NCBI GenBank assembly: GCA_030613245.1
Contig: JAUWMI010000004.1
Span: forward strand, 32,610-96,609
DNA from: Candidatus Sumerlaeota bacterium
GTDB lineage: Bacteria > Sumerlaeota > Sumerlaeia > MWCT01 > JAUWMI01
DNA: 64,000 nt
Direction: 5' to 3'
The notes under the pieces are model-generated. The model was not told where the DNA came from. It made no database searches and worked only from the letters and a program-made list of their open reading frames with translations. The position numbers and the translations under genes were made by a program. This document shows, in pieces, positions 19,602-54,244 of this stretch (the stretch's first letter is position 1; each line of letters opens with the position of its first letter).

Positions 19602-20741
19602 TCAAACCTTGATGTAAATCTTCTTCTTGTAAAGAGGTGTCAAGACTAGGAGCCAAAACACAATATAGCTGATGGCAAACAAGAGGGATGCCATCTTCAG
19701 GTCGTCTGACCATGGGACAAAGATATTTTGGTAAATCCAGGGCTTTAGCGCCAGCTCTCCATCCGCTATGGGTACTGTTATATACCTGCCTATTAATCTG
19801 CCTACGATTCCTGATGCGAAAAAGACTGCAATAGCGTTTGTTCCATAAATAACAAAAGGTGTTGCCCATCGCTTGTAGCCCTTTATGTCTATTAGCCAGT
19901 AACACATCGCCAGGAAATGCAGCGCCATGCCTGCCATGAAGACAACGTAAGAACTGGTCCAGATTTTCTTGTTAATTGGAAACCAGACATGCATGATCAC
20001 TCCGACCACGATTGCCACGTTTGCCATGATAAAAAGACCAGTCAACTTCTCCATCTTGCTTCGCGCAGAATGAAGCCAGTTGCCTGTCAGCACACCCAAT
20101 AGCGTCGTCGAGATCGCAGGAATCGTACTTAATATCCCTTCTGGATCAGGTCTTTCTCTGTACAGATGCCCGCCTAGAACCTTCGTATCAATATAGTCAT
20201 GGAGAAGTCCTTCCTGTCCTGTCACCGACGCTTCGTAACCAATAGGGGCGTGAAAGAGCTTCACGATTGCCCAATAGATAACGATTATCGCAAATGCCCA
20301 GAACGCACGTCCCTTCCAGCCCGTATACATAACAATAATAGCCGCGAAGAAATAACAGACAGCGATCCGCTGCAACACACCAGGGATGCGTATGGTCCCA
20401 AGATTGAATTTGGGAAACCCGGCGAGAATAAGACCCAGCAGAAAAAGAATTGCACTTCGCCTTACCACGTTGGCAAAGAGCTGGCTGCGAGTATCACCCC
20501 GCTCCAGACGCTTCGCAAAAGAAAACGTCATCGCAACTCCCACGATAAACATAAAGAACGGAAAGATCGTATCCGTCATCGTCCATCCATTCCATTTGGC
20601 ATGAAGCAGTGGAGAGTAAACGTGACCCCAGCTCCCTGGATTGTTCACCAGAATCATCATCGCAATCGTAATGCCCCGAAAGGCATCCAGTGAAACCAAA
20701 CGTTCACCTTTCTGCTCTTTGATCTGTTCGTTCATGGTCAC
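19602..20741 (-). CDS. Acyltransferase-3/HGSNAT-like membrane protein (DUF1624/DUF5009 family)
   Basis: The N-terminal RLVSLDAFRGITIAMMILVNN motif is characteristic of the heparan-alpha-glucosaminide N-acetyltransferase-like family. About 10 TM helices. Confidence 0.6.
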   Translation of the reverse strand: MTMNEQIKEQKGERLVSLDAFRGITIAMMILVNNPGSWGHVYSPLLHAKWNGWTMTDTIFPFFMFIVGVAMTFSFAKRLERGDTRSQLFANVVRRSAILFLLGLILAGFPKFNLGTIRIPGVLQRIAVCYFFAAIIVMYTGWKGRAFWAFAIIVIYWAIVKLFHAPIGYEASVTGQEGLLHDYIDTKVLGGHLYRERPDPEGILSTIPAISTTLLGVLTGNWLHSARSKMEKLTGLFIMANVAIVVGVIMHVWFPINKKIWTSSYVVFMAGMALHFLAMCYWLIDIKGYKRWATPFVIYGTNAIAVFFASGIVGRLIGRYITVPIADGELALKPWIYQNIFVPWSDDLKMASLLFAISYIVFWLLVLTPLYKKKIYIKV

Positions 20742-21606
20742 AGACTCTAGGCTCCTTTCTTGATGGTTTGCAGAACTTCAATTACCCTTTCAAAGAAAAC
20801 ATCATCCTGCATGCGACCTAACGCCACTCCTCTGCTAGCCGGATGAGGACTCTTCCTTGCAGAAAGCAGAATGAAACATGCCATCTTATTCTGGATTTGC
20901 CCTATTAAAGAAAGATGGGCTTTGTATTATTGCCAGATGGTGCCCTGAGACTTAGGGGTCGTCAAGCTTGAATTTGGCAATAACATAGAAGCGTCAAGTT
21001 TGCCGGAGCCAATATTTCAAACTATCACATCGACCAATGCCAGCATGTCGAGCCGTGACTCTACCATGAGGAACTTACTGTTTATGAACCATTTTGCAGC
21101 AGGTTATTAAGGATAAAATAGGAGTTTCGCTCAAATTAATTGCATAAAATGCATTTTGCCCTTGACATGAAGGCGATATTCGAATAATCAAGTACATTTA
21201 GTATACTTAAATTAAGATATTTAGTGTGTGCGCCCATTTTTTTGTACCTATTTCCGTCCCAGTTGTAACCGGTGTTACAAGAAGTTTTCATAATAAAGTG
21301 CATATATGAATTTAAAAAGAAGTAATATTATACTTGCATGTTAATTTTGCTCTTGATAGAATGAAATTAATATACACATAAAAAGCAAGTATATTTCGTA
21401 TACTCCTTTTTCATGTTTCTATTCTAACTCAGTGCGTATCTTTTCCTGTTCCAGCCGCAGCTCCTGCTCAAAGACATCCTGAGAAACATCCTATAACGCA
21501 TTCCAAGATCTCGCAGGAATGAAAACGATGTATTTCTTGATCTGTTTTAAGCGCAGATCATTAACTGGGTCTTTGTATTTGTATTAAACAATAACCTGCT
21601 AAATGG
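20742..21606. promoter_or_regulatory. Roughly 0.9 kb AT-rich ORF-free divergent intergenic region, with a TTGACA hexamer at 21162 and palindromes at 21141-21153 (TGCATaaaATGCA) and 21264-21279 (TGTAACcggtGTTACA)
   Basis: No six-frame ORF of 60 aa or more. Locally about 30% GC against about 50% in the flanks. The perfect 6-4-6 palindrome is operator-like. Confidence 0.4.
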
Positions 21607-21623
21607 AAAGGAGGTGATTTAGA

Positions 21624-22139
21624 ATGCTTAAGCGATACCGCTTTCTGCTGTTTGCTGTTGTTGCGATCGTAACCGTGGCAATTGGAACCAGCGCAATATG
21701 GGCTGTTTGCCAATATAAGTTTACAAAGGGCATCAGTGGCCCAATGCAGGTGTATGTCAAGGAGTACAACCAATGGGACTTATACATACACATCTCCGGG
21801 CCTGGCCTTAGCGACCTCGTAATAACAGACGTTATCCCGGCTGAATTGGACGTACTTTGGTACACGGCAGACATGGGAACTGTGTCCATTGAGGAAACTG
21901 GAAAGTCTGGCAAATCCGCGACTAAAGTTACATGGACCATCAATGGCCCCATCCCGGATAATGAGTTTACCACCCTACGCTTGCGCATTGCCACGAGACT
22001 CAGTCCATCTGGTAAGTTCTACCGGTTTACTGACGCTGGCTGCTACTATTTGAACGAAGGCGCGCATATGGAAGGCATCCGCGATTTGTTGCCGTGGTCT
22101 GATGACACAAATGGTATAACTATAACGGTACTGCCATAA
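21624..22139 (+). CDS. Small secreted/membrane-anchored hypothetical protein (171 aa)
   Basis: Canonical SD AAAGGAGGTGA (21607-21617) 6 nt before the ATG. The N-terminal hydrophobic anchor is LLFAVVAIVTVAIG. Confidence 0.55.
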   Translation: MLKRYRFLLFAVVAIVTVAIGTSAIWAVCQYKFTKGISGPMQVYVKEYNQWDLYIHISGPGLSDLVITDVIPAELDVLWYTADMGTVSIEETGKSGKSATKVTWTINGPIPDNEFTTLRLRIATRLSPSGKFYRFTDAGCYYLNEGAHMEGIRDLLPWSDDTNGITITVLP

Positions 22140-22762
22140 GATTAACTCGGTACGAGTACAAATTGCATTGTGAGGAGCCGTGGGTTTACTGACGTGTCCT
22201 CCCCTTGGCACACCTAAAATCTGGGGTTTTCAGTAATCGAGGGCAGCACTGAGTGAAAACAAGCTGCTCATGCAGAGCCGATTATGGGTCGGAGTCCACG
22301 GTTTCTCATCTCTTTTTAGAAAATGTGAGGTACTTCAGGTAAAATGCTGTCTCTTACGATTTCAACAAAGTTGCATACAAGGGGATGTTTTTTCTTAAAG
22401 GAGCGACAACTCCTAAAATTTATGGGACATATCCTAACCGATTGAAATGGTCTTTTCTTATTCTATTCTGAGGACGATTTAGTCTCATTGATGTTATTTA
22501 ACAAGCAAGTTATGCATTGTTGGCCAAAAGAGATTTCGAAAAGGCGGAGCGTTTAGTTAATCACTGCAATGTGTGGAAGGAATGGCTGCTGATGAAGAAT
22601 GAGCTATTTTTATTATACCAAGTATACTTAGTTCCGTGGGAAAACGTCGATAAATTACCAAATCTTAATGCGAGAATTTAATGAAAATCAAAGGTTGCAT
22701 TAAAAAAGTGCATTTTTTTCTTGACACGGCGAAATTGCCTGTGATAGCGGAAACCATACTTG

Positions 22763-22789
22763 CTATACCATGTAATAGATTTGGTATAG
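22763..22789. promoter_or_regulatory. Inverted repeat CTATACCA-N11-TGGTATAG upstream of the HTH-PilZ gene, with a TTGACA at 22721
   Basis: Perfect 8-bp arms lying in the long leader of the regulator gene; a candidate operator. Confidence 0.3.
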
Positions 22790-22977
22790 TAAAACGTGCG
22801 CCCTCACGTCCGTTCCTGCTCCAACTACAGAAGAACATTAAAGCTGAAAGATCCCCTTACGACCCAGCAGGCAACCTACTCAGCAGCTACAGAAAACCAG
22901 GGGTGCTGGAGAGGTATACGCATTTTTCTGTCTTACGTAAATTACTACATCCTATCAACCGGCGGGTCAGGGGAGAT

Positions 22978-23532
22978 ATGAAAACTTATTCAACCTTAGA
23001 AGCAGCCAAGAGAATTGGCGTTAGTAAATCAACATTGTTCGCTTGGTTTAAACATGGTAAAGTAAAAGACGTTGCGCGTGATCACCGTGGCTGGCGAATT
23101 TTCACCAGGGAGGATATACATCGGCTCATTGAATTCCGGCGCAATCGTCGAGCTATGCCTCAGAGCGCAGCTGGAATAGAACGGAGGCATTTTACGCGAG
23201 CGAAAGCCGCCATCCCAATCGTCTATGCACTTCGTGAAAGCCCAAAGCGGTCTGGGAAAGAGAAAATCGAAACAGTTACCGTGAATGTGAGTGGTGGTGG
23301 CTTCATGATAGAACAAAACAAGCCTCTCCAGACCGATGGCTTCCTTGATATTAAGTTCAATTTGCCTTCCCCTGCAAAGAAAGTCAAAGCAATTGGGCAA
23401 ATAAGATGGGTACGGGAAGTTAAGAAAGATCAAGAATCTACTTTTCTTCTCGGGTGTTGGTTCAGGTCAATAAACCCACATCAAAGAAAGCAGGTGATAG
23501 ATTACATTTTTGGATCAAAACCAAAAACATAA
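22978..23532 (+). CDS. Excisionase/MerR-type HTH DNA-binding domain fused to a PilZ (c-di-GMP-binding) domain
   Basis: GGGGAG lies 6 nt before the ATG. The N-terminal STLEAAKRIGVSKSTLFAWFKHGKV matches the Xis-family HTH. The PilZ motifs are RHFTR (RxxxR) and NVSGGG (D/NxSxGG), 27 aa apart. The upstream part of the 283-aa ORF (22681-22977) is probably leader, not coding. Confidence 0.7.
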   Translation: MKTYSTLEAAKRIGVSKSTLFAWFKHGKVKDVARDHRGWRIFTREDIHRLIEFRRNRRAMPQSAAGIERRHFTRAKAAIPIVYALRESPKRSGKEKIETVTVNVSGGGFMIEQNKPLQTDGFLDIKFNLPSPAKKVKAIGQIRWVREVKKDQESTFLLGCWFRSINPHQRKQVIDYIFGSKPKT

Positions 23533-47358: not shown

Positions 47359-50300
47359 TTAAGGATAAGGAATCGTGAGATAATCGACTGCAACGCTGTC
47401 CATGTAGATGGTACCGCCCTTCGCCGCGTTGAAGTCAAGCAAATCGATCGTCACGACGAACCCATCCTCTGACGGCGTTGGTGAGCCGGGCAAGATTGGG
47501 GTCTCCCAATAGAGCTCATACCCAGTACCACCAACTGTTGGCATTGCGCCTGGGCCACCGGCGCCTTGGCTATTCAGTTCCATCGTCTTCGTCATCTGTG
47601 CGTCGTCATTCTGGCACCGCAGCCTGATCTGTGGCATGTCATTTCGGGCCGCATCAGTCGCGCACCTCAGCGTGTATGTCGCCCGATAGAGCTTATCCGC
47701 CACATAGGTTAGCTCATTTGCCGTCCAGCTCGACTGCCAGAATCCCGAATTGCTCGAGTCAGCAAGGCTGGACGCAATGGAGAGCGTGCCAGTACCATCA
47801 CCACCTGACGTAACTGGACCGTAGCCAACGTTTGTTAAGAATTGCCAGTTCGCAAAATCAGCAGATGAGCTATACGTCTTAACCGATGTGCCAGATGCCA
47901 AACGTGGGAACCGCTCCACTGTAATCCGATCCACATAGTGCGTGCCATACTGCCCCGCGTCGAAGTCAACCATATCAAAGGCAACACCAAGGTTATATGC
48001 CAAGATCGGCGCAAAATAGATGGCGTATTCTCGCTGTATTGGATCAGTTGGTAAGGAGTTGCTGTACGAGCCTGACGGGTTCACGACGTGCGATGCCGAC
48101 TCCAGAGATTGATCCTGGGTCCACCGCATGCGAAACTGCGGATTCGCAGAAGCCGTGGCTTGACTGGAGGAAGCCAAGAACCGGGCCCGATACACATTAT
48201 CCGCCAAGCAAGGAATGTCCAGCGGCCCAATCCAGAATCCGACGCGGTTTGTCGTATCATTCGCCGAACTGATGCTTATTCGACCACCGCTATAGCCGGA
48301 CCATGCCCCGGAGAAGCCCGGACCACTTAGCGGTAGAAATGACCAGCCTTCAAGAGAGGCATCAAACGTATATTGCGGGAGAGGCATAATAGGAGCTGCA
48401 TCATAGATAGCTTGAATCTCTTCCTGGCCCAGAGCTCGGTTGTAGATACGGACATCATCGATGATTCCATTAAATGTATTGCTAAAAGGCTGCCATGTAA
48501 TACTATCACCAATTAAAACTTGTGAAGTGCCCTGGTAAATTCCCCCATTATAACCTTGAGGGCTTCCGCTTGATGAACCATCAATATATAATTGTACATA
48601 ACTCCCGTCGTAAGTAGCTGCTATATGATGCCAGGTATTTAAAGTCATACCAGAATCTGCCCAAAATCTAATATGGTTCCCACTTGAACCATCAGGACTT
48701 AATAGAAAAAGAGGTGTCGTACCTCCTACCCCAAGCCAATAAGAAACTTGTTCATCCTTAGTTAATACAGCACTCCATGCTTTTGATTGCTCCAAATAAA
48801 CCCATGCAGCAATTGTCATTGATTCAGGGTCTAGATCATCATGGTGAGGAATTGTAACCTTATCATTACTTCCGTCAAAATCTAAAGCATAATTAATCCT
48901 TCCCTCTGTCCATAATGGGCCATTGATTAAAGTTCCATCATGACCATTACCTGAGGAGTCTTGTGCAGTTGTGCCAGCTTCTTCATCAAGTTTCCAGTGT
49001 GCAATTAAACCATCAGTTACATCAGCTCTATATACATAATCTATCTGGGTTGGCTGGATTGGATTCAAAGCGGTATCTTTTACATCTTCTACTGTTAAGG
49101 TATATGTCAGCCCATCTGTATGAGAAGAGGTTGTTAAAGTAACAGTTATAAGATCAAACCCAAGCGAAGCCTGCGTTATTGATATGCCATTGTTGATACT
49201 ATAATTTGTTATATTTTCTGCTGACAATGTATCTAGGGCCTCATTGAAAACAATATTAATGGATGTCTCTTGTGTTATAACTGAAACAATAGAAGGTGGG
49301 GTTGTATCAGCCAATGTAGTAGCTGAGACAGGGGGCGATTTATCAGATTCATTTCCTGCAAAATCATATGCTAGAACTTGGTATGTATATGTAGTAGAAG
49401 GAGTAAGCTCTGTATCAGAATAGGTAACTGTAGTAGATGTTGCTATTTCAACACCCTCTCTGTATATCTTATATCCTGCCAGTGCTACATTATCAGTCGA
49501 TGCATCCCAGGATAGGTCTATTTGCTGATGGGATACTGCAGTAGCAATTAGAGTCTGTGGTACTGTAGGCGGTTCTGTGTCAATGACACCAGGATATTCA
49601 TAAGCACCTATATCCCAGCCAGCACCTTGTGGTCTTGGGTCTCCAGCAATGTCTTTTGTGAAATCATAATACTCGCCATATTTTAATTGAAGTTCATTAA
49701 GTATGCTAGTTATGTCAGTTCCTGCATCAATTGCAATACTGCCTGGTTTTAGATGATAATTCCAGTCAGCACGATTAGCACCACTAACATCAGCAAGTAT
49801 TTTTGTTAAATCTGGTTCATAAATTTCATTTGTGCCTGAGCTTGAACCTAAAACAGTATAAATATTATGTGAGATATCTGCTCCAGGTTTATCCACTGGT
49901 CGAGCTATAATATTATTTTTCATGATTAAATTATCAATAGCGCCTATACCATAAAGAGTAATTGGTGGGGTATAACCACTGAAAAGAACATTGTTTAGAA
50001 CTTTCACATTTTTGGCACCAGATCCCCAAACAGTAATAGGGCATGTGCCTGATCCTTCTTTTGCTATTAAAATATTGTTGTAAACAGTTAGGTCATCTGC
50101 CCTATGTATTGCAAGAGGTCTTTGGCCTCCAAAAACCACATTACCAGCAACTAGAATATTTCTGGTAAAACATGAAGGACAAACTTCAGCTGCCGCGTGG
50201 TCATGATATATTGTAATTACATTGGTATGGCCTGAAGGAGCACAGTCATAGAATTTATTATTTATTACTACTATTGTCCCACCGCCACTCTCAATCCTCA

Positions 50301-50940
50301 TTCCATTAGGAGTTCTTTCGAGAGTATTGTTTCTGATAATAAGTTTGCCTCCCTCCGCACCAGCGTATATTCCTCTTGAGTCTGTATCATGTATATAATT
50401 ATTTTCAATAATACAAACATCGTCACTAGCCTCAAACCTCACATCGTAAATATCTCCAAGATCTACTGCTCCAGAGAGGCCACTATTGCCACTTACTTCA
50501 TTATTTCTTACAATCATATTTAATCCAGGAGTGTCTCCTAAAATTCCGGCATTCTGTACTCTAAATCCTTCTATAGTTATATAATTATAACCAGTATTTT
50601 TTATATGATTTCCATTCACGATAGCTTTTGTTCCTTCTAAATCGGGCCAATTGTCTCCTCTGTATGTTATATGATTTCCAGATACACCACTTGCTTTAAT
50701 ACTTATGCTCCCTCCATAAATCACTCCTCCTTTAAATAATACAGTGTCTCCAGGCTGCAAGCTGGCAGAAGCTGGGTTGCCTGTTGCATTTGGGTCACCG
50801 GGGGCATGTTTCCAAGGGGTAGATGCCGATAAACCAGTGTTTGTATCACGGCCATTTTCAAAATCTACATAGTAGTCTGCCTGAGCAAAACTGCATAACA
50901 AGAAAAAGGGAACCAGAAAAACCACAACTACGTACTTCAT
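47359..50940 (-). CDS. Large secreted multidomain protein: right-handed parallel beta-helix (pectin-lyase fold) + FN3 + Ig-like + LamG/ConA-like + two C-terminal beta-sandwich (CBM-like) modules
   Basis: Signal peptide MKYVVVVFLVPFFLLCSFAQA (start at 50940 with GGAGTGG SD). PbH1-type repeats (IENNYIHDTDSRGIYAG...). The FN3 region is PPTVPQ...YKIYR...TYTYQV. The LamG region is ...HWKLDE..GNGHDGTL....DFDGSNDKVTIP. Confidence 0.8.
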   Translation of the reverse strand: MKYVVVVFLVPFFLLCSFAQADYYVDFENGRDTNTGLSASTPWKHAPGDPNATGNPASASLQPGDTVLFKGGVIYGGSISIKASGVSGNHITYRGDNWPDLEGTKAIVNGNHIKNTGYNYITIEGFRVQNAGILGDTPGLNMIVRNNEVSGNSGLSGAVDLGDIYDVRFEASDDVCIIENNYIHDTDSRGIYAGAEGGKLIIRNNTLERTPNGMRIESGGGTIVVINNKFYDCAPSGHTNVITIYHDHAAAEVCPSCFTRNILVAGNVVFGGQRPLAIHRADDLTVYNNILIAKEGSGTCPITVWGSGAKNVKVLNNVLFSGYTPPITLYGIGAIDNLIMKNNIIARPVDKPGADISHNIYTVLGSSSGTNEIYEPDLTKILADVSGANRADWNYHLKPGSIAIDAGTDITSILNELQLKYGEYYDFTKDIAGDPRPQGAGWDIGAYEYPGVIDTEPPTVPQTLIATAVSHQQIDLSWDASTDNVALAGYKIYREGVEIATSTTVTYSDTELTPSTTYTYQVLAYDFAGNESDKSPPVSATTLADTTPPSIVSVITQETSINIVFNEALDTLSAENITNYSINNGISITQASLGFDLITVTLTTSSHTDGLTYTLTVEDVKDTALNPIQPTQIDYVYRADVTDGLIAHWKLDEEAGTTAQDSSGNGHDGTLINGPLWTEGRINYALDFDGSNDKVTIPHHDDLDPESMTIAAWVYLEQSKAWSAVLTKDEQVSYWLGVGGTTPLFLLSPDGSSGNHIRFWADSGMTLNTWHHIAATYDGSYVQLYIDGSSSGSPQGYNGGIYQGTSQVLIGDSITWQPFSNTFNGIIDDVRIYNRALGQEEIQAIYDAAPIMPLPQYTFDASLEGWSFLPLSGPGFSGAWSGYSGGRISISSANDTTNRVGFWIGPLDIPCLADNVYRARFLASSSQATASANPQFRMRWTQDQSLESASHVVNPSGSYSNSLPTDPIQREYAIYFAPILAYNLGVAFDMVDFDAGQYGTHYVDRITVERFPRLASGTSVKTYSSSADFANWQFLTNVGYGPVTSGGDGTGTLSIASSLADSSNSGFWQSSWTANELTYVADKLYRATYTLRCATDAARNDMPQIRLRCQNDDAQMTKTMELNSQGAGGPGAMPTVGGTGYELYWETPILPGSPTPSEDGFVVTIDLLDFNAAKGGTIYMDSVAVDYLTIPYP

Positions 50941-51590
50941 TACAACCACTCCTTTCCAACAGGAACAAGAACTTTTCCGGCATGCGCAAGAATTTAAAAA
51001 ATTCAATTAGGCTGTTATCCCCTTAATTCAAACAAATGGAAGCCTTACATTAAGAAGACGAGAGAGTCAATAAACAACCATACTGCGTGGATGTTGAAAG
51101 ACATAAAATATCGCAATCTGATGAGACATTGCCGTTTCGCAACCTAAATGGCATTAATACTTTGCATCTCCGATCAGTGGTCATTATTAAACTAGGCATG
51201 ATTTTCTTAAGAGCCACACGGCCACTTTGCTTCAGTCGCATGATCACACTGGACTATATATAAGCCTGGAAATCAGCAACATGTTAAAGATTTTCAATAC
51301 ATTCGTGTGCAAAGCCCACAAGAAATACATACTATATCACTTAGCAAAAATAGACTGCTAAATTTCCGGTTGGCCAAGCAACTGTGCCACAGAGCATTGA
51401 TTTGCCTTCCCTTAAAGCTCTAAGTCTGGCAAGGAGTCGAATTCGCTCTTCATGCATTTTCCCTAACCAATACAAATGCTATGCTTTTGCATCGCGGAAC
51501 ATCGGCAAGAAATAGAAAGGTAATATTCGGTCTCGTTTTTGTTGCAAAGTTATGGAACAACCACGCAGGCGCAAAACTATAGATTATTTT

Positions 51591-52541
51591 CTACCTCCAA
51601 GTACTCTTGCGCCTCCAGCGCATAGCCCATGGGAAGCAAAGCACAACAAGACATCTTAAATATGTTCTTAAATAACCCCCAAAGCGCAGACCATCGAAGG
51701 CATAACGTCTGGCGTCGTACATATTCTTTTCTATACAACAAATTTCCGCCATGGTTGCGAGAAAAGAGCCCAAGGTTTGCCTAACTCTCCGAATAATTCT
51801 CCTTCCTTTTTGTTCACAACGAAAATAGACTTCAGAAAGAATCGTAATCCCTTCTTTTGTCCTTACTTTAACTGAATCCAGCCGATTGTTTATCAGCCCT
51901 TTTCTCTCAGCTGAGCGATGAATAATGGTGAGCGGTGTAGTTATATACGCAAAGGCCGTTTCGAAGGCTAAATTAAAAATCATCCGAGTATCGTCCGCAA
52001 TCTGTAACCGCTCATCGAAATATCCTACATGAGCAAAGAGGCTGCGCTTAACCAACATCGATTGTACGTAGTTTTTTGTTGAACTATCCAAAACCATTTC
52101 AAGAGGCTCACCATATAACTTATATCTCATTTCTTTCTGTTCTGTAGCAACGAGGGATGTGTGCTCATCGGGTTCGCTCTCATATATAATATTAGTAAAA
52201 CAAACTTGTGCGTCGCTTTGAGTTACGCAGTCCATTTGGTAGGCAAGTTTTTCAGGTATCCACCTGTCGTCTGAATCAAGAAAAGCTACCCATTTTGCGT
52301 TCGCGGACTTAATGCCTAAATTACGAGCAGCTGCCACACCGCGATTTTCCTGATATATATAGCGTATACAGTCCTGATAAGGTTCCAGAGCTTGCCGAGT
52401 GCCATCTGTGGAACCATCGTCAACAACAATAATCTCATAATCTTTATACGTCTGAGCTAAAGCGCTGTCTATTGCTTTTGTCACATACCTGGCTCGATTG
52501 TAAGTTGGGATTATCACGCTGATACTTACCCGCTTTTCCAT
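51591..52541 (-). CDS. Glycosyltransferase family 2
   Basis: VSISVIIPTYNRARYV...EIIVVDDGSTDGT. Confidence 0.8.
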   Translation of the reverse strand: MEKRVSISVIIPTYNRARYVTKAIDSALAQTYKDYEIIVVDDGSTDGTRQALEPYQDCIRYIYQENRGVAAARNLGIKSANAKWVAFLDSDDRWIPEKLAYQMDCVTQSDAQVCFTNIIYESEPDEHTSLVATEQKEMRYKLYGEPLEMVLDSSTKNYVQSMLVKRSLFAHVGYFDERLQIADDTRMIFNLAFETAFAYITTPLTIIHRSAERKGLINNRLDSVKVRTKEGITILSEVYFRCEQKGRRIIRRVRQTLGSFLATMAEICCIEKNMYDARRYAFDGLRFGGYLRTYLRCLVVLCFPWAMRWRRKSTWR

Positions 52542-52702
52542 GATTAAAGGGCCCCCTGGCTTATATTGCTTTCCCTGCTTTCTGAAGCCGTCTATCAACT
52601 GTATCAGTCTTCTAGAGCCTTATAGTTTTACACAAGACAAATAATCTTGCCTTTGTCTTCTCTCGGTCAGGCCCTGTAAAATTCTCCAAGGTTATATCTG
52701 TG

Positions 52703-54244
52703 TTAATCTTTGCTTCCAGTTTCGGCATATTGGGGGAGTTTTATGATCCCCAATTTGTTAAAAAGCCATTTCTTTTCTTGTGAGTCCAAAACCCAAAAAA
52801 ACGAAACCCCCAGCGTCAATATAACTATTATTGCAATTGGCGGTGCCAATCCAACAATTCCGATGCCAATGAAATGGCGGCTGAATAGCCACCATGAGAG
52901 AAAAAACACAAGAGAAATTTTAACAAAGGCCTTGCCAAGGACGCTATAGTAGTAGTCCTTATAGGGCATTTTTAGACATTTACATACATAAAAAGGCTGC
53001 ACAAGTAGCCTCATGACAATCATTGGAATAGCATAGCCAAGAGCTATGCCCAGCATCTTGTATTGAGATACTAATAGTAAACTGAGCGAGAGATTGAGCA
53101 ATGCTTCCACAGAATTGCAATAAGCGTAAAATTTATGGCGCGCTATGCCATAGAGAAAACCCACAGAGGGCGCTTGGGCGAGATCAACGGTTGTTCCTAT
53201 AATTAACAGAAAAAGAGGAACATAGGCATCTATATAATCAACACCCATCCAAGCAGCAATGAATGGTTTTCCATATAGGAGAAGACACAGCCCTACGCAC
53301 ATCGAGAAAATAGTGGAAAGTTTTGTCCCTGTGACGAAAGTCCGGCGCATCGCATCTTCATCTTGGCGGCCCAATTGCTGGCTGAACATTGGGCCAATGC
53401 CACCCATGAGAGAGATTATTAGATTTCTAAAATACATGGTTAATCGTTTGGCAATGGCGTAGTGCGTTATCATGCCGATACCAAGAAAAGCACCAATAAT
53501 GAAGGCGTCTATGTTGAATCTGATTTGATCAGCTATTTTTGCAATGAACGTGAAAATGCTATAGGCGAATAGATCCTTAAAGACCTTGCGACTTGCTGTT
53601 CTAATTGACAGGCGAAATCTCGGTCGCACTATCTTAAGAAGCACGTAGCGTGCTGAGTGGTTAGAAAGCTCAATCAACATCGTCACAAGGGCCAGTGCCA
53701 CTATACCATATCCTGCTTTTAGCAAGAGGAAAATTAAGACAGCTCTCACCAGGGTACCTGCGATGTTGAGTCCAGATATAAGATCGAAACGCAACTCGGC
53801 AGACAAAGCTCCAAGAAAAGCTCGACACGGAAACCCAGCCACGAAGCCTGCACCCATGATTAATAGCACTTTGCTAAAAAGAGCTGCTTCCGTAGGATCT
53901 TTAATTATGCGAGAGGAGAAGAACGCCGCAACTATGGTAATTGCGAAAATGAGCAAACCCAGTAATCCGAACATGACAAATGCGGTGGAAACTGAGCGGT
54001 TTATCTCCTCCTCATCCCGCTCTCCTATACATCGTGCAACCCGATACTGCACGGCAGTGACAATTCCAAGATCAAAAAGGCCGTAGTATCCAAGAAAGGC
54101 AGCGACCAATACCCAATAGCCATAGATGCGATCACCAAGGGTATGGATGATAAAAGGCATCAGGAACATACCGACAACAACCTGAACCACAAGGTTGGTT
54201 GTCCGCATGGCTGATCCTAAGGCTAGTTTACGAGCAGCGTTCAT
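52703..54244 (-). CDS. Wzx-type oligosaccharide flippase (MOP/polysaccharide biosynthesis protein family)
   Basis: 513 aa, roughly 14 TM helices, matching the usual Wzx layout. Confidence 0.75.
   Translation of the reverse strand: MNAARKLALGSAMRTTNLVVQVVVGMFLMPFIIHTLGDRIYGYWVLVAAFLGYYGLFDLGIVTAVQYRVARCIGERDEEEINRSVSTAFVMFGLLGLLIFAITIVAAFFSSRIIKDPTEAALFSKVLLIMGAGFVAGFPCRAFLGALSAELRFDLISGLNIAGTLVRAVLIFLLLKAGYGIVALALVTMLIELSNHSARYVLLKIVRPRFRLSIRTASRKVFKDLFAYSIFTFIAKIADQIRFNIDAFIIGAFLGIGMITHYAIAKRLTMYFRNLIISLMGGIGPMFSQQLGRQDEDAMRRTFVTGTKLSTIFSMCVGLCLLLYGKPFIAAWMGVDYIDAYVPLFLLIIGTTVDLAQAPSVGFLYGIARHKFYAYCNSVEALLNLSLSLLLVSQYKMLGIALGYAIPMIVMRLLVQPFYVCKCLKMPYKDYYYSVLGKAFVKISLVFFLSWWLFSRHFIGIGIVGLAPPIAIIVILTLGVSFFWVLDSQEKKWLFNKLGIIKLPQYAETGSKD

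Follow-up and report, generated by a model that had tools for sequence, protein, structure and literature searches.

What is the role of the long gap that separates two divergently transcribed genes in a Sumerlaeota genome, and which of its sequence elements carry that role? The gap occupies positions 20742–21623 of the 64-kb stretch of DNA analysed here (the window). It is bounded by the start of a minus-strand gene for a 379-aa, acyltransferase-like membrane protein (19602–20741) and by the ATG of a plus-strand gene for a 171-aa protein (21624), just as an earlier note on this DNA had drawn it. The same note had seen no ORF of at least 60 aa inside, which is correct: the longest has 55 aa, and the final 25–63 nt of the region are overlapped by two ORFs that run antisense to the 171-aa gene. 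Hidden small proteins could be ruled out, as all ORFs of 12–55 aa in 20742–21623 are interrupted by stops or frameshifts at orthologous loci and none of them is conserved. Rfam gave no match, either for the whole window at gathering scores or for 20600–23100 at E-values up to 5. Every syntenic Sumerlaeota locus retrieved has kept a long gap here, of 0.87–1.18 kb in all of these related loci, together with the blocks inside it; a genome scan for further ones returned two Sumerlaeota loci, one of them already known. Unrelated inserts of ~300 nt are located left of the conserved block 21085–21101 in L003 and L008. A 62-aa ORF (L003) and a 92-aa ORF (L008), mutually unrelated, both lie within these lineage-specific inserts. 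The explanation that we favour, with somewhat better than even confidence in it as a whole, is that 20742–21623 serves both divergently transcribed genes as a common upstream control region and is neither a gene nor a replication origin.

The most conspicuous elements of the region are not its meaningful ones. The earlier note had singled out two perfect palindromes, TGCATaaaATGCA (21141–21153), next to a TTGACA hexamer (21162–21167), and TGTAACcggtGTTACA (21264–21279), and had suggested searching them for a regulon. All three sequences were found at these positions, and the second palindrome extends to a 7-4-7 palindrome (21263–21280). Perfect palindromes occur in the region at chance-level frequency: perfect inverted repeats with loops of 0–10 nt numbered 16 with 5-nt arms (13.0 +/- 4.3 in mononucleotide shuffles), 5 with 6-nt arms (3.1 +/- 2.1) and 2 with 7-nt arms (0.95). 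TGTAAC..GTTACA has no second copy in the 64 kb, even when 3 mismatches are allowed, and TGCATAAAATGCA with 2 mismatches has 4 matches in the 64 kb, where 3.6 are expected. Neither is kept in all relatives, with TGTAAC..GTTACA being degraded at the orthologous loci L007, L038 and L008, and TGCAT..ATGCA being absent in L008 and non-palindromic in the paralogous modules described below. Given this poor conservation and no recurrence beyond chance in the window, the two palindromes were rejected as a regulon motif, and they are not the features that matter, whichever reading of the region holds. The notion of a “regulatory hub” stands in a general sense, considering that the gap is conserved and that a promoter-like module and a dyad both recur in it, but not with perfect palindromes as its basis.

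The left part of the region holds the following features:
20742–20936, minus strand: probable 5′ leader of the acyltransferase-like gene.
~20752–20765, minus strand: ribosome-binding site of the acyltransferase-like gene, AAGGAG on the minus strand, GCTCCTTTCTT on the plus strand.
20937–20985, minus strand: best-conserved island of the region, AAATTCAAGC-TTGACG (20965–20960), 17-nt spacer, CACCAT (20942–20937).
21085–21101, no strand assigned: conserved block TGAACCATTTTGCAGCA, ~60–75 bp upstream of the first rightward TTGACA.

Within the leader, CTCCTTT..GATGGTTT adjoining the start codon is conserved in 7 loci, and the remainder of 20742–20936 evolves at an approximately neutral rate. The 45-bp island shows 92% identity (over 20942–20981) across 6 orthologues compared to 64–80% at third codon positions of the flanking genes, and in the two most distant orthologues still 82% compared to 55–61%. 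Its spacer contains a short dyad, CCCT/AGGG, that becomes GCCC/GGGC and CTTT/AAAG in distant loci. We regard TTGACG-17 nt-CACCAT as a candidate leftward promoter with a weak -10 assignment (CAsCAT); it probably drives the acyltransferase-like gene via a leader of ~190 nt. The block at 21085–21101 is invariant or near-invariant in 7 loci, keeps its position in L003 despite the missing module A, and is possibly an upstream factor-binding site. Two other readings of the conserved blocks were excluded by eye, sigma-54 given GG-N9-GC in place of GG-N10-GC, and ECF given no conserved -10 partner after TGAACC.

The right part, the AT-rich two-thirds of the region, is composed of two promoter-like modules with a third relative in front of the next gene downstream:
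21127–21316, plus strand: module A, promoter-like, recognised with orthologue profiles and nhmmer; TTGCATaaaATGCA (21139–21153), ATTTTGCCCTTGACA (21153–21167), dyad box AAGTACAtttagTATACTT (21190–21208), GTGCGCCC (21228–21235), C-rich motif TTTCCGTCCCAG (21251–21262), weak hairpin TTGTAACcggtGTTACAA (21263–21280).
21317–21623, plus strand: module B and the 5′ leader of the 171-aa gene; CTTGCATG (21332–21339), ATTTTGCTCTTGATA (21344–21358), dyad box AAGTATAtttcgTATACTC (21387–21405), C-rich motif TTCCTGTTCC (21443–21452), Shine-Dalgarno (SD) sequence GGAAAGGAGGTG (21605–21616).
22674–22977, plus strand, outside 20742–21623: module C and the leader of the HTH-PilZ gene; ATTTTTTTCTTGACACGG (22712–22729), TTGCTA (22760–22765), 19-nt spacer, TATAGT (22785–22790), dyad CTATACCA/TGGTATAG together with TATAGT, GTGCGCCC (22796–22803).
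21190–21208, no strand assigned: dyad box 1, AAGTATA-N5-TATACTT type, in module A.
21387–21405, no strand assigned: dyad box 2, AAGTATA-N5-TATACTT type, in module B.
22611–22629, no strand assigned, outside 20742–21623: dyad box 3, TATTATAccaagTATACTT, ~90 bp upstream of the module C TTGACA.
22978–23532, plus strand: gene of a 184-aa protein with MerR-type HTH and PilZ domain, from Pfam and PDB matches.

Modules A and B are paralogous, a tandem duplication of a ~190-bp promoter/leader module directed at the 171-aa surface-protein gene. Their orthologue profiles match each other reciprocally (nhmmer E 1.4e-4 and 3.1e-6, searching 64 kb on both strands), and each copy combines an A/T-rich tract and a C-rich leader motif with a TTGACA-type hexamer that is followed 22–28 bp downstream by a 19-bp dyad. 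Pairwise similarity reached z = 5.6 for A–B and z = 4.7 for A–C; that of B–C (z = 0.2) was not significant alone. Module C is linked to A and B by weak but reciprocal profile matches (E 0.004–0.25), of which the A–C cross-matches (E 0.004–0.03 in several orthologues) were always co-linear. Moreover, ATTTTNNNCTTGAYA has exactly three perfect copies in the 64 kb, located in A, B and C, and 7 copies with one mismatch where 1.0 is expected. The modules differ in their conservation: B is present in all 8 lineages and C is near-invariant over ~110 nt without indels in 9 loci, while A was found in 6 lineages and is absent in L003. Since conservation of the downstream half of module A is also not above neutral (third codon positions), module A may be a decaying duplicate.

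All -35-like hexamers of the locus are conserved (TTGACA at 21162–21167, TTGATA at 21353–21358, TTGACA at 22721–22726 and, on the minus strand, TTGACG at 20965–20960), and the TTGATA of module B reads TTGACA in L003, L007, L038 and L040. A scan with the sigma-70 consensus, which may not be that of this phylum, detected no -10 hexamer 16–18 bp after the TTGACA hexamers, and overall 7 promoter-like sites compared to 5.4 expected. Inspection by eye gave only poor -10 candidates, the best being TAATCA, CACCAT and, at variable spacing, TATACA, and module B of L040 alone shows TTGACA-16 nt-TATAAA. Other intergenic TTGACR sites in the window are likewise without a TATAAT partner. At the RNA level, RNAalifold pairs 21443–21452 of the module B leader with the SD (21605–21613; 93% of cells paired), an anti-SD helix without significant covariation (70–117 of 500 shuffles reach the observed values), and in the module C leader a predicted anti-SD UCCCCU pairs with GGGGAG.

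The element that does recur is the 19-bp dyad, whose half-sites are spaced by 12 bp. Allowing up to 2 mismatches, it occurs once within a gene and otherwise at 21190, 21387 and 22611, with 0.4 sites expected in the 64 kb that the dyad scan of the source genome covered, and a longer version of the pattern has 4 matches against 0.08 expected in the same 64 kb. Three of the sites are located within 1.45 kb, and the dyad is absent from 100.9 kb of unrelated loci. Box 3 is conserved as TATTATATCAGATATACTT in L007, L010, L038 and L040 with symmetric changes, and the 5-nt spacer of the dyad (wTTAG) is itself conserved. Not all of its arrangement is uniform. It lies downstream of TTGACA in A and B and upstream in C, which counts against the model proposed below. 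The dyads of A and B have no -35/-10-like hexamers directly flanking them and are not centred in a 19–20 bp MerR-type spacer; only module C shows such an arrangement, with TTGCTA-19 nt-TATAGT around a dyad.

The gene behind module C offers a candidate for the protein that binds these sites. It is the first gene of a Wza/Wzz/tyrosine-kinase/glycosyltransferase exopolysaccharide (EPS) cluster, and its 184-aa product matches Pfam PilZ (E 1.2e-12) and, over residues 4–50, MerR_1 (E 4.8e-7), with residues 3–50 also matching MerR-family regulators in the PDB (E 1.7e-4). The match covers only positions 1–46 of the 69 in the MerR_1 profile, with PilZ beginning at residue 68 and no matched MerR coiled-coil region, a point against binding of a dyad as a MerR-type dimer. 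In the alignment, both PilZ motifs, RxxxR and (D/N)xSxxG, are present, RRHFTR being invariant and NVSGGG being conserved with DVGGGG in distant members. The intact motifs make the protein a candidate c-di-GMP receptor. Fusions of a MerR-type HTH to PilZ are rare: in a set of 1.84 billion representative proteins, clustering at 50% identity leaves only about five groups of them. Three full-length homologues (P0036–P0038) are 37–42% identical; a profile search gave no additional full-length HTH-PilZ homologues, a metagenome scan for further HTH-PilZ loci returned HTH-only relatives alone, and in a literature search we found no paper describing a MerR-HTH-PilZ regulator. The dyad is associated with HTH-PilZ genes also beyond the close relatives: with 0–1 mismatch it precedes, by ~60–70 bp, the start codon in each of two distant HTH-PilZ genes (L041 and L042), whose proteins are 49% and 46% identical to the one studied here and which are the only distant homologues with upstream DNA inspected. 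Chance placement was reached in 16 of 20000 and 11 of 20000 shuffles (p about 6–8e-4 each), although L041 and L042 are mutually related and amount to one independent observation, so that the link between dyad and HTH-PilZ genes rests on few related lineages.

From this association we infer that the dyad boxes are operators of the neighbouring HTH-PilZ protein. In the full form of this model, which we put forward as tentative and rather less than evenly probable, the dyads would be the operators of a c-di-GMP-dependent transcription factor from a class not described before, a MerR-type HTH fused directly to PilZ, that couples the surface-protein gene, its own gene and the EPS cluster in Sumerlaeota by means of a duplicated module, to which module A might add a short C-rich RNA. 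In the explanation favoured here, the HTH-PilZ protein would bind the dyads in A, in B and upstream of C, so that the cellular c-di-GMP level would govern how strongly the surface-protein gene and the gene of the regulator itself are transcribed, alongside EPS production. The C-rich motif of module B may additionally mask the ribosome-binding site. The conservation, the paralogy of the modules and the recurrence of the dyad next to HTH-PilZ genes are observations, whereas promoter activity, transcription starts, the identity of the binding protein, activation or repression by it and its reaction to c-di-GMP are matters of prediction from sequence.

Other explanations account for parts of the same evidence. 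The earlier note had given a GC content of about 30%, which applies to the 320-bp core 21101–21420 (28.7%, compared to 47.5% for the window) and not to the whole region (37.6%, with 44.7% in the left part, 20742–21050, and 33.9% in the right part), and had considered silencing by an H-NS-like protein. Xenogeneic silencing of the EPS island by such a nucleoid protein, with the repeats having no specific role, would agree with the AT-rich core and with the GC content of the downstream EPS cluster (44–48%), which is slightly below that of the upstream genes (50–53%). However, the region as a whole falls within the range of the other intergenic gaps in the window (37–49%) and does not qualify as an AT island, the locus and its gene order are conserved in all relatives and are no recent insertion, and silencing does not need the sequence-specific blocks and dyad that are conserved here. 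We know of no H-NS-like protein in Sumerlaeota and regard silencing as very improbable. A chromosomal replication origin, with an AT-rich unwinding element at the GC-skew minimum and a switch of gene orientation, would explain why the cumulative GC skew is lowest at 21–22 kb, where the genes diverge. But the skew changes sign again at ~47 kb, exactly where the genes return to the minus strand, and hence tracks the coding strand and not replication; moreover, 20742–21623 contains no TTATCCACA box with at most one mismatch, the window contains no TTATNCACA, and there is no dnaA/dnaN context among the genes examined. Lacking DnaA boxes and with a skew that follows the gene strand, the origin is effectively refuted and its probability close to nil.

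Two further alternatives place the function in RNA. The earlier note's suggestion of encoded sRNAs can be specified as module A being an independent sRNA gene of ~70–110 nt that starts after TTGACA, ends at the TTGTAAC-cggt-GTTACAA hairpin followed by GAAGUUUUC, and pairs in trans through its C-rich UUUCCGUCCC with SDs such as GGAAAGGAGG of the 171-aa gene. Module A indeed has a promoter-like front end as in B with no ORF behind it, its C-rich motif resembles the B motif predicted to pair with the SD, and a hairpin with a short U-run is present in the window, the corresponding position in L007 and L038 holding a different hairpin with UUUU. Against this, Rfam has no match, the hairpin has little predicted stability (-5.1 kcal/mol, z -1.46) with 2 of 7 pairs broken in L007 and L038 (2 of 6 loci), and the putative RNA folds no better than shuffles (z -0.9 to -1.8; +0.9 in L008). 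Across orthologues, identity in 21222–21340 is 60–67% and does not exceed the synonymous baseline (64–80%), and L003 has no module A at all. An sRNA thus finds no positive support, the supposedly transcribed part evolving at least as fast as third codon positions and the hairpin being unconserved, and we give it a low probability. Slightly less doubtful, though still unlikely, is that the dyads, like the palindrome of module C, function in RNA, with AAGUAUA...UAUACUU hairpins at the 5′ end of each leader, where they would influence stability, processing or translation. The boxes are 22–28 nt past a -35-like hexamer and could lie at or just after +1, RNAalifold predicts for the box a hairpin that includes several G-U pairs, some changes in module B of L008 and in module C preserve pairing via wobble, and both leaders (B and C) are predicted to sequester the SD. 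On the other hand, the asymmetric positions in 15 box instances comprise 6 G-T, 6 A-C and 7 other combinations, and because they show no wobble (G-U) bias a DNA site fits better than an RNA hairpin. The conserved spacer would be unusual for a loop, box 3 lies upstream of the module C -35-like hexamer, and the anti-SD helix has the non-significant covariation given above.

If the proposed operator role of the dyads is true, it would provide a defined operator sequence for Sumerlaeota, a small regulon consisting of the surface protein, the regulator and the EPS genes, and a new way for c-di-GMP to control transcription, by means of a MerR-type HTH joined to PilZ. If it is false, the region would be a long ordinary promoter and leader. 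To our knowledge, there are no studies of regulation in Sumerlaeota. Two genome-survey papers deal with the phylum (PMC8092238, PMC10866078).

The predicted arrangement shares traits with several known systems. Like many surface and biofilm operons with tandem promoters and leaders that mask the ribosome-binding site, the region has two modules, a ~200-nt leader and a pyrimidine stretch complementary to the SD. Unlike in ordinary tandem promoters, the duplicated unit of ~190 bp can still be recognised as paralogous, and the gene next door has a third relative of it; the SD masking is a prediction here. BrlR of Pseudomonas aeruginosa is a MerR-family regulator that binds c-di-GMP (PMC6028453). 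The 184-aa protein resembles it in its MerR-type N-terminal HTH and its predicted c-di-GMP response, and BrlR-type regulators likewise act on their own promoter. Module C, with TTGCTA-19 nt-TATAGT and a dyad centred in the spacer, has the classical MerR promoter geometry, whereas the dyads of A and B are outside any 19–20-bp spacer, unlike in MerR-family promoters. BrlR senses c-di-GMP without PilZ and possesses a MerR coiled coil and a GyrI-like domain, while in the 184-aa protein the HTH leads almost directly into PilZ. MrkH of Klebsiella pneumoniae is a PilZ-domain, c-di-GMP-dependent activator of the mrkABCDF fimbrial operon that recognises the MrkH box (PMC3161979, PMC3828302). Both are PilZ-domain transcription factors, by prediction in our case, encoded beside genes for surface structures. 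MrkH contacts DNA with its PilZ and N-terminal domains. It has no MerR-type HTH, in contrast to the 184-aa protein with such an HTH at its N-terminus, and the site described here, known from sequence alone, is a 19-bp AGTATA-based dyad in three copies and unlike the MrkH box. The predicted logic is nevertheless alike: the specific site that MrkH binds is short and precedes both its target and its own operon, and here c-di-GMP would likewise be relayed to a surface protein and matrix genes.

The intergenic region 20742-21623 lies between a minus-strand gene on its left and a plus-strand gene on its right, and it is a long divergent promoter/leader region, an ordinary kind of object. Its unusual part seems to be the tandem duplication of a promoter module whose dyad goes together with a rare regulator of the HTH-PilZ type, a verdict based on comparative inference across a handful of uncultured genomes. 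The earlier note, which had flagged an AT-rich, ORF-free gap with two perfect palindromes, described something real but overstated it, and what is informative lies elsewhere than in the features it singled out. The two palindromes and the TTGACA hexamer do sit exactly where they had been placed, and no ORF of at least 60 aa lies inside the region; none of its small ORFs survives in orthologues. The claimed low GC holds just for a 320-bp core (21101-21420, 28.7%), while the full region has 37.6% (left 300 bp 44.7%), compared with 47.5% for the entire window and 37-49% for its remaining intergenic gaps. Set against this range, the value speaks against H-NS-type silencing, for which there is nothing specific in favour. 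Another low-GC stretch, 37-41% over ~4 kb in and around a 1215-aa minus-strand ORF (49000-53000), falls below the region's GC when averaged at equal scale.

Features of the divergent region and its right flank
19602-20741, minus strand: gene for a 379-aa polytopic membrane protein, left neighbour of the gap
20937-20985, minus strand: conserved island, AAATTCAAGC-TTGACG, 17 nt, CA(C/G)CAT
21085-21101: second conserved block, TGAACCATTTTGCAGCA, kept in all loci
21127-21316, plus strand: module A, promoter-like
21317-21623, plus strand: module B and leader of the 171-aa gene, promoter-like
21624-22139, plus strand: 171-aa gene with N-terminal hydrophobic segment, right neighbour of the gap
22674-22977, plus strand: module C and leader of the HTH-PilZ gene
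22978-23532, plus strand: MerR-type HTH + PilZ gene (184 aa), directly after module C

The 171-aa protein had no match in a Pfam search and its family is tiny (15 clusters among 5.8 billion proteins), and a member look-up yielded seven independent syntenic loci. Their minus strand carries genes for SerRS, an RNase H-like protein and a 267-aa protein as well as the acyltransferase-like gene; a long gap (0.87-1.18 kb) separates these from the plus-strand 171-aa gene, and another long gap lies between the latter and the MerR-HTH-PilZ gene, which is followed by Wza-like, Wzz/GNVR, ParA-like kinase, sugar transferase and more EPS genes. Since gene order and gap length are kept, the gap is a conserved feature of the locus. 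The previous label “HGSNAT-like” for the 379-aa protein could not be confirmed because its sole Pfam match, GWT1 acyltransferase, falls below threshold (E 4e-4). One orthologous locus (L040) has a tandem pair of 171-aa genes (392-871 and 1227-1703) with identical ribosome-binding regions, where module B precedes the first copy only.

Conservation was judged in a 7-way alignment against third codon positions of three flanking genes, whose identity to the window is 64-80% for all six orthologues and 55-61% for the two most distant. The bulk of the gap drifts near the neutral rate and islands exceed this baseline, the strongest being 20937-20985 (92% and 82%, respectively), a candidate leftward promoter with a poor -10 and, in its spacer, a short dyad showing compensatory changes between lineages. 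In both of the most distant loci, a ~300-nt insertion separates this island from the TGAACCATTTTGCAGCA block (L003 5190-5640, L008 ~1400-1860); the insertions are mutually unrelated and each holds one called, spurious-looking ORF of 62 or 92 aa.

The AT-rich right part of the gap consists of two related plus-strand units, modules A and B. ATTTTNNNCTTGAYA occurs without mismatch at just three sites in 64 kb (21153, 21344 and 22712), the last of which belongs to module C ahead of the HTH-PilZ gene, and CAAGTAYATTTNGTATACT is present at 21189 and 21386. Orthologue profiles of A find B and vice versa (E 1.4e-4 and 3.1e-6; whole window, both strands), with matches co-linear across ~140 nt, and single-sequence local alignment gives z = 5.6. 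Module A also resembles C (z = 4.7; profile cross-matches E 0.004-0.03, repeated in several orthologues), whereas B and C on their own are not significantly similar (z = 0.2), so that A links the two. Module B occurs in 8/8 lineages, C in 9/9 and A in six; A is missing from L003, where the TGAACCATTTTGCAGCA block therefore directly precedes B. Around 110 nt of module C (22712-22803, plus strand) are nearly invariant, with zero indels across nine loci with protein divergence of 20-30%. No TATAAT-like partner lies 16-18 bp after the TTGACA hexamers of these modules, nor after those in other gaps of the window. Module C has TTGCTA-19 nt-TATAGT with a spacer-centred dyad of 8-nt arms (CTATACCA/TGGTATAG; compensatory changes in both arms in L008), matching classical MerR promoter geometry.

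The flagged palindromes do not stand out. Perfect inverted repeats with arms of 5, 6 and 7 nt number 16, 5 and 2 in the gap, counts equalled or exceeded in about a quarter of shuffles, and recurrence is lacking too: a further TGTAAC..GTTACA is absent from the 64 kb even when three mismatches are allowed, and TGCATAAAATGCA-like sites occur at chance rate in the window. The palindrome TGCATaaaATGCA sits in the A/T-rich front of module A and is kept in 5/6 A copies, its counterpart being a direct TGCAT repeat in C and a single TGCAT in B; TGTAAC..GTTACA belongs to the tail of A, where conservation is poor, and is degraded in three orthologous loci (L007, L038, L008). That module A encodes an sRNA is possible but unsupported: it has no Rfam match, its tail evolves at the neutral rate, the hairpin is weak and non-conserved, and folding energies are no better than those of shuffles. 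An origin of replication was rejected, as DnaA boxes are absent and the GC skew reverts at 47 kb along with gene orientation.

The recurring conserved element is instead the dyad AAGTATA-N5-TATACTT (alternatively read as AGTATA-N3-AGTATA), found with up to two mismatches in A (21190-21208), in B (21387-21405), at 22611-22629, ~90 bp upstream of the module C TTGACA, and at one in-gene site, against 0.4 in shuffles; 100.9 kb of unrelated loci gave no match. The decisive evidence comes from L041 and L042, the only more distant HTH-PilZ genes with readable upstream DNA (protein identity 49% and 46%), the former followed by a Wza-like gene as in the Sumerlaeota locus. Both carry the same dyad ~60-70 bp ahead of the HTH-PilZ start codon (AAGTATAgtgagTATACTC and cAAGTATAgtaagTATACTTg), which arose in 16/20000 and 11/20000 shuffles of the respective short upstream regions, and both have a CTTGACAC-type element and a AGTATAttAGTATAC repeat farther upstream. 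As the two loci are mutually related, they count as one independent confirmation. Action of the boxes at the RNA level is not favoured: symmetry-breaking positions over 15 instances (G-T 6, A-C 6, other 7) show no G-T excess and the 5-nt spacer is itself conserved, a pattern more in line with a DNA site than with an RNA hairpin.

We propose that the gap would act as a divergent control region in which the island 20937-20985 drives the acyltransferase-like gene leftward and the duplicated promoter/leader module (A followed by B) acts rightward on the 171-aa surface-protein gene. The HTH-PilZ protein, loaded with or freed of c-di-GMP, might bind the dyads in A, B and upstream of C, thereby co-regulating the surface protein, the regulator itself and the EPS genes behind. 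In the B leader, the conserved stretch TTCCTGTTCC (21443-21452) is able to base-pair with the SD GGAAAGGAGG (21605-21613), a helix proposed by RNAalifold in which 93% of cells are paired and two double changes occur; covariation does not exceed that of shuffles and the pyrimidine-purine runs pair even when slid, so masking of the SD is just a possibility. For the C leader (22796-22977, plus strand) the predicted fold would mask the SD in a similar way, UCCCCU (~22852-22858) pairing with GGGGAG; an inner helix of this fold has a compensatory A-U to G-C change in L002.

Between the 171-aa gene and module C lies a conserved structured element of ~150 nt (22173-22322, plus strand), with an 18-bp closing helix (GUGAGGAGCCGUGGGUUU with GAGUCCACGGUUUCUCAU), inner helices and then CUCUUUUU, kept in 9 orthologous loci with double changes at 8 pairs. 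It has no Rfam match and may represent either a complex terminator or an ncRNA not described so far. Its 5' arm contains one copy (22183-22194) of the exact 12-nt direct repeat GGTTTACTGACG, the other lying inside the 171-aa ORF (22024-22035). Scattered over the whole window are 22 sites of TTATCCACA with at most one mismatch (13.1 +/- 3.4 in shuffles, 0/100 reaching 22), none in 20742-21623.

The regulator combines a MerR-type HTH (Pfam MerR_1, E 4.8e-7; MerR-family regulators in PDB, E 1.7e-4, residues 3-50) with a PilZ domain (Pfam, E 1.2e-12) in which the RRHFTR and NVSGGG motifs are conserved. Its ORF is called at 283-338 aa, running upstream across module C, which looks like an annotation artefact given the conserved start at 22978. 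Full-length relatives amount to eight 90% clusters among 5.8 billion proteins and, in a set of 1.84 billion, to five 50% representatives, remaining matches covering the HTH or the PilZ part alone; the direct fusion is thus a very rare architecture, and no paper describing it was found in the literature searched. Its known analogues are the PilZ-based activator MrkH (PMC3161979) and the MerR-type c-di-GMP receptor BrlR (PMC6028453). A c-di-GMP-responsive transcription factor with its operator is a known kind of system, of which this locus seems to be a variation.
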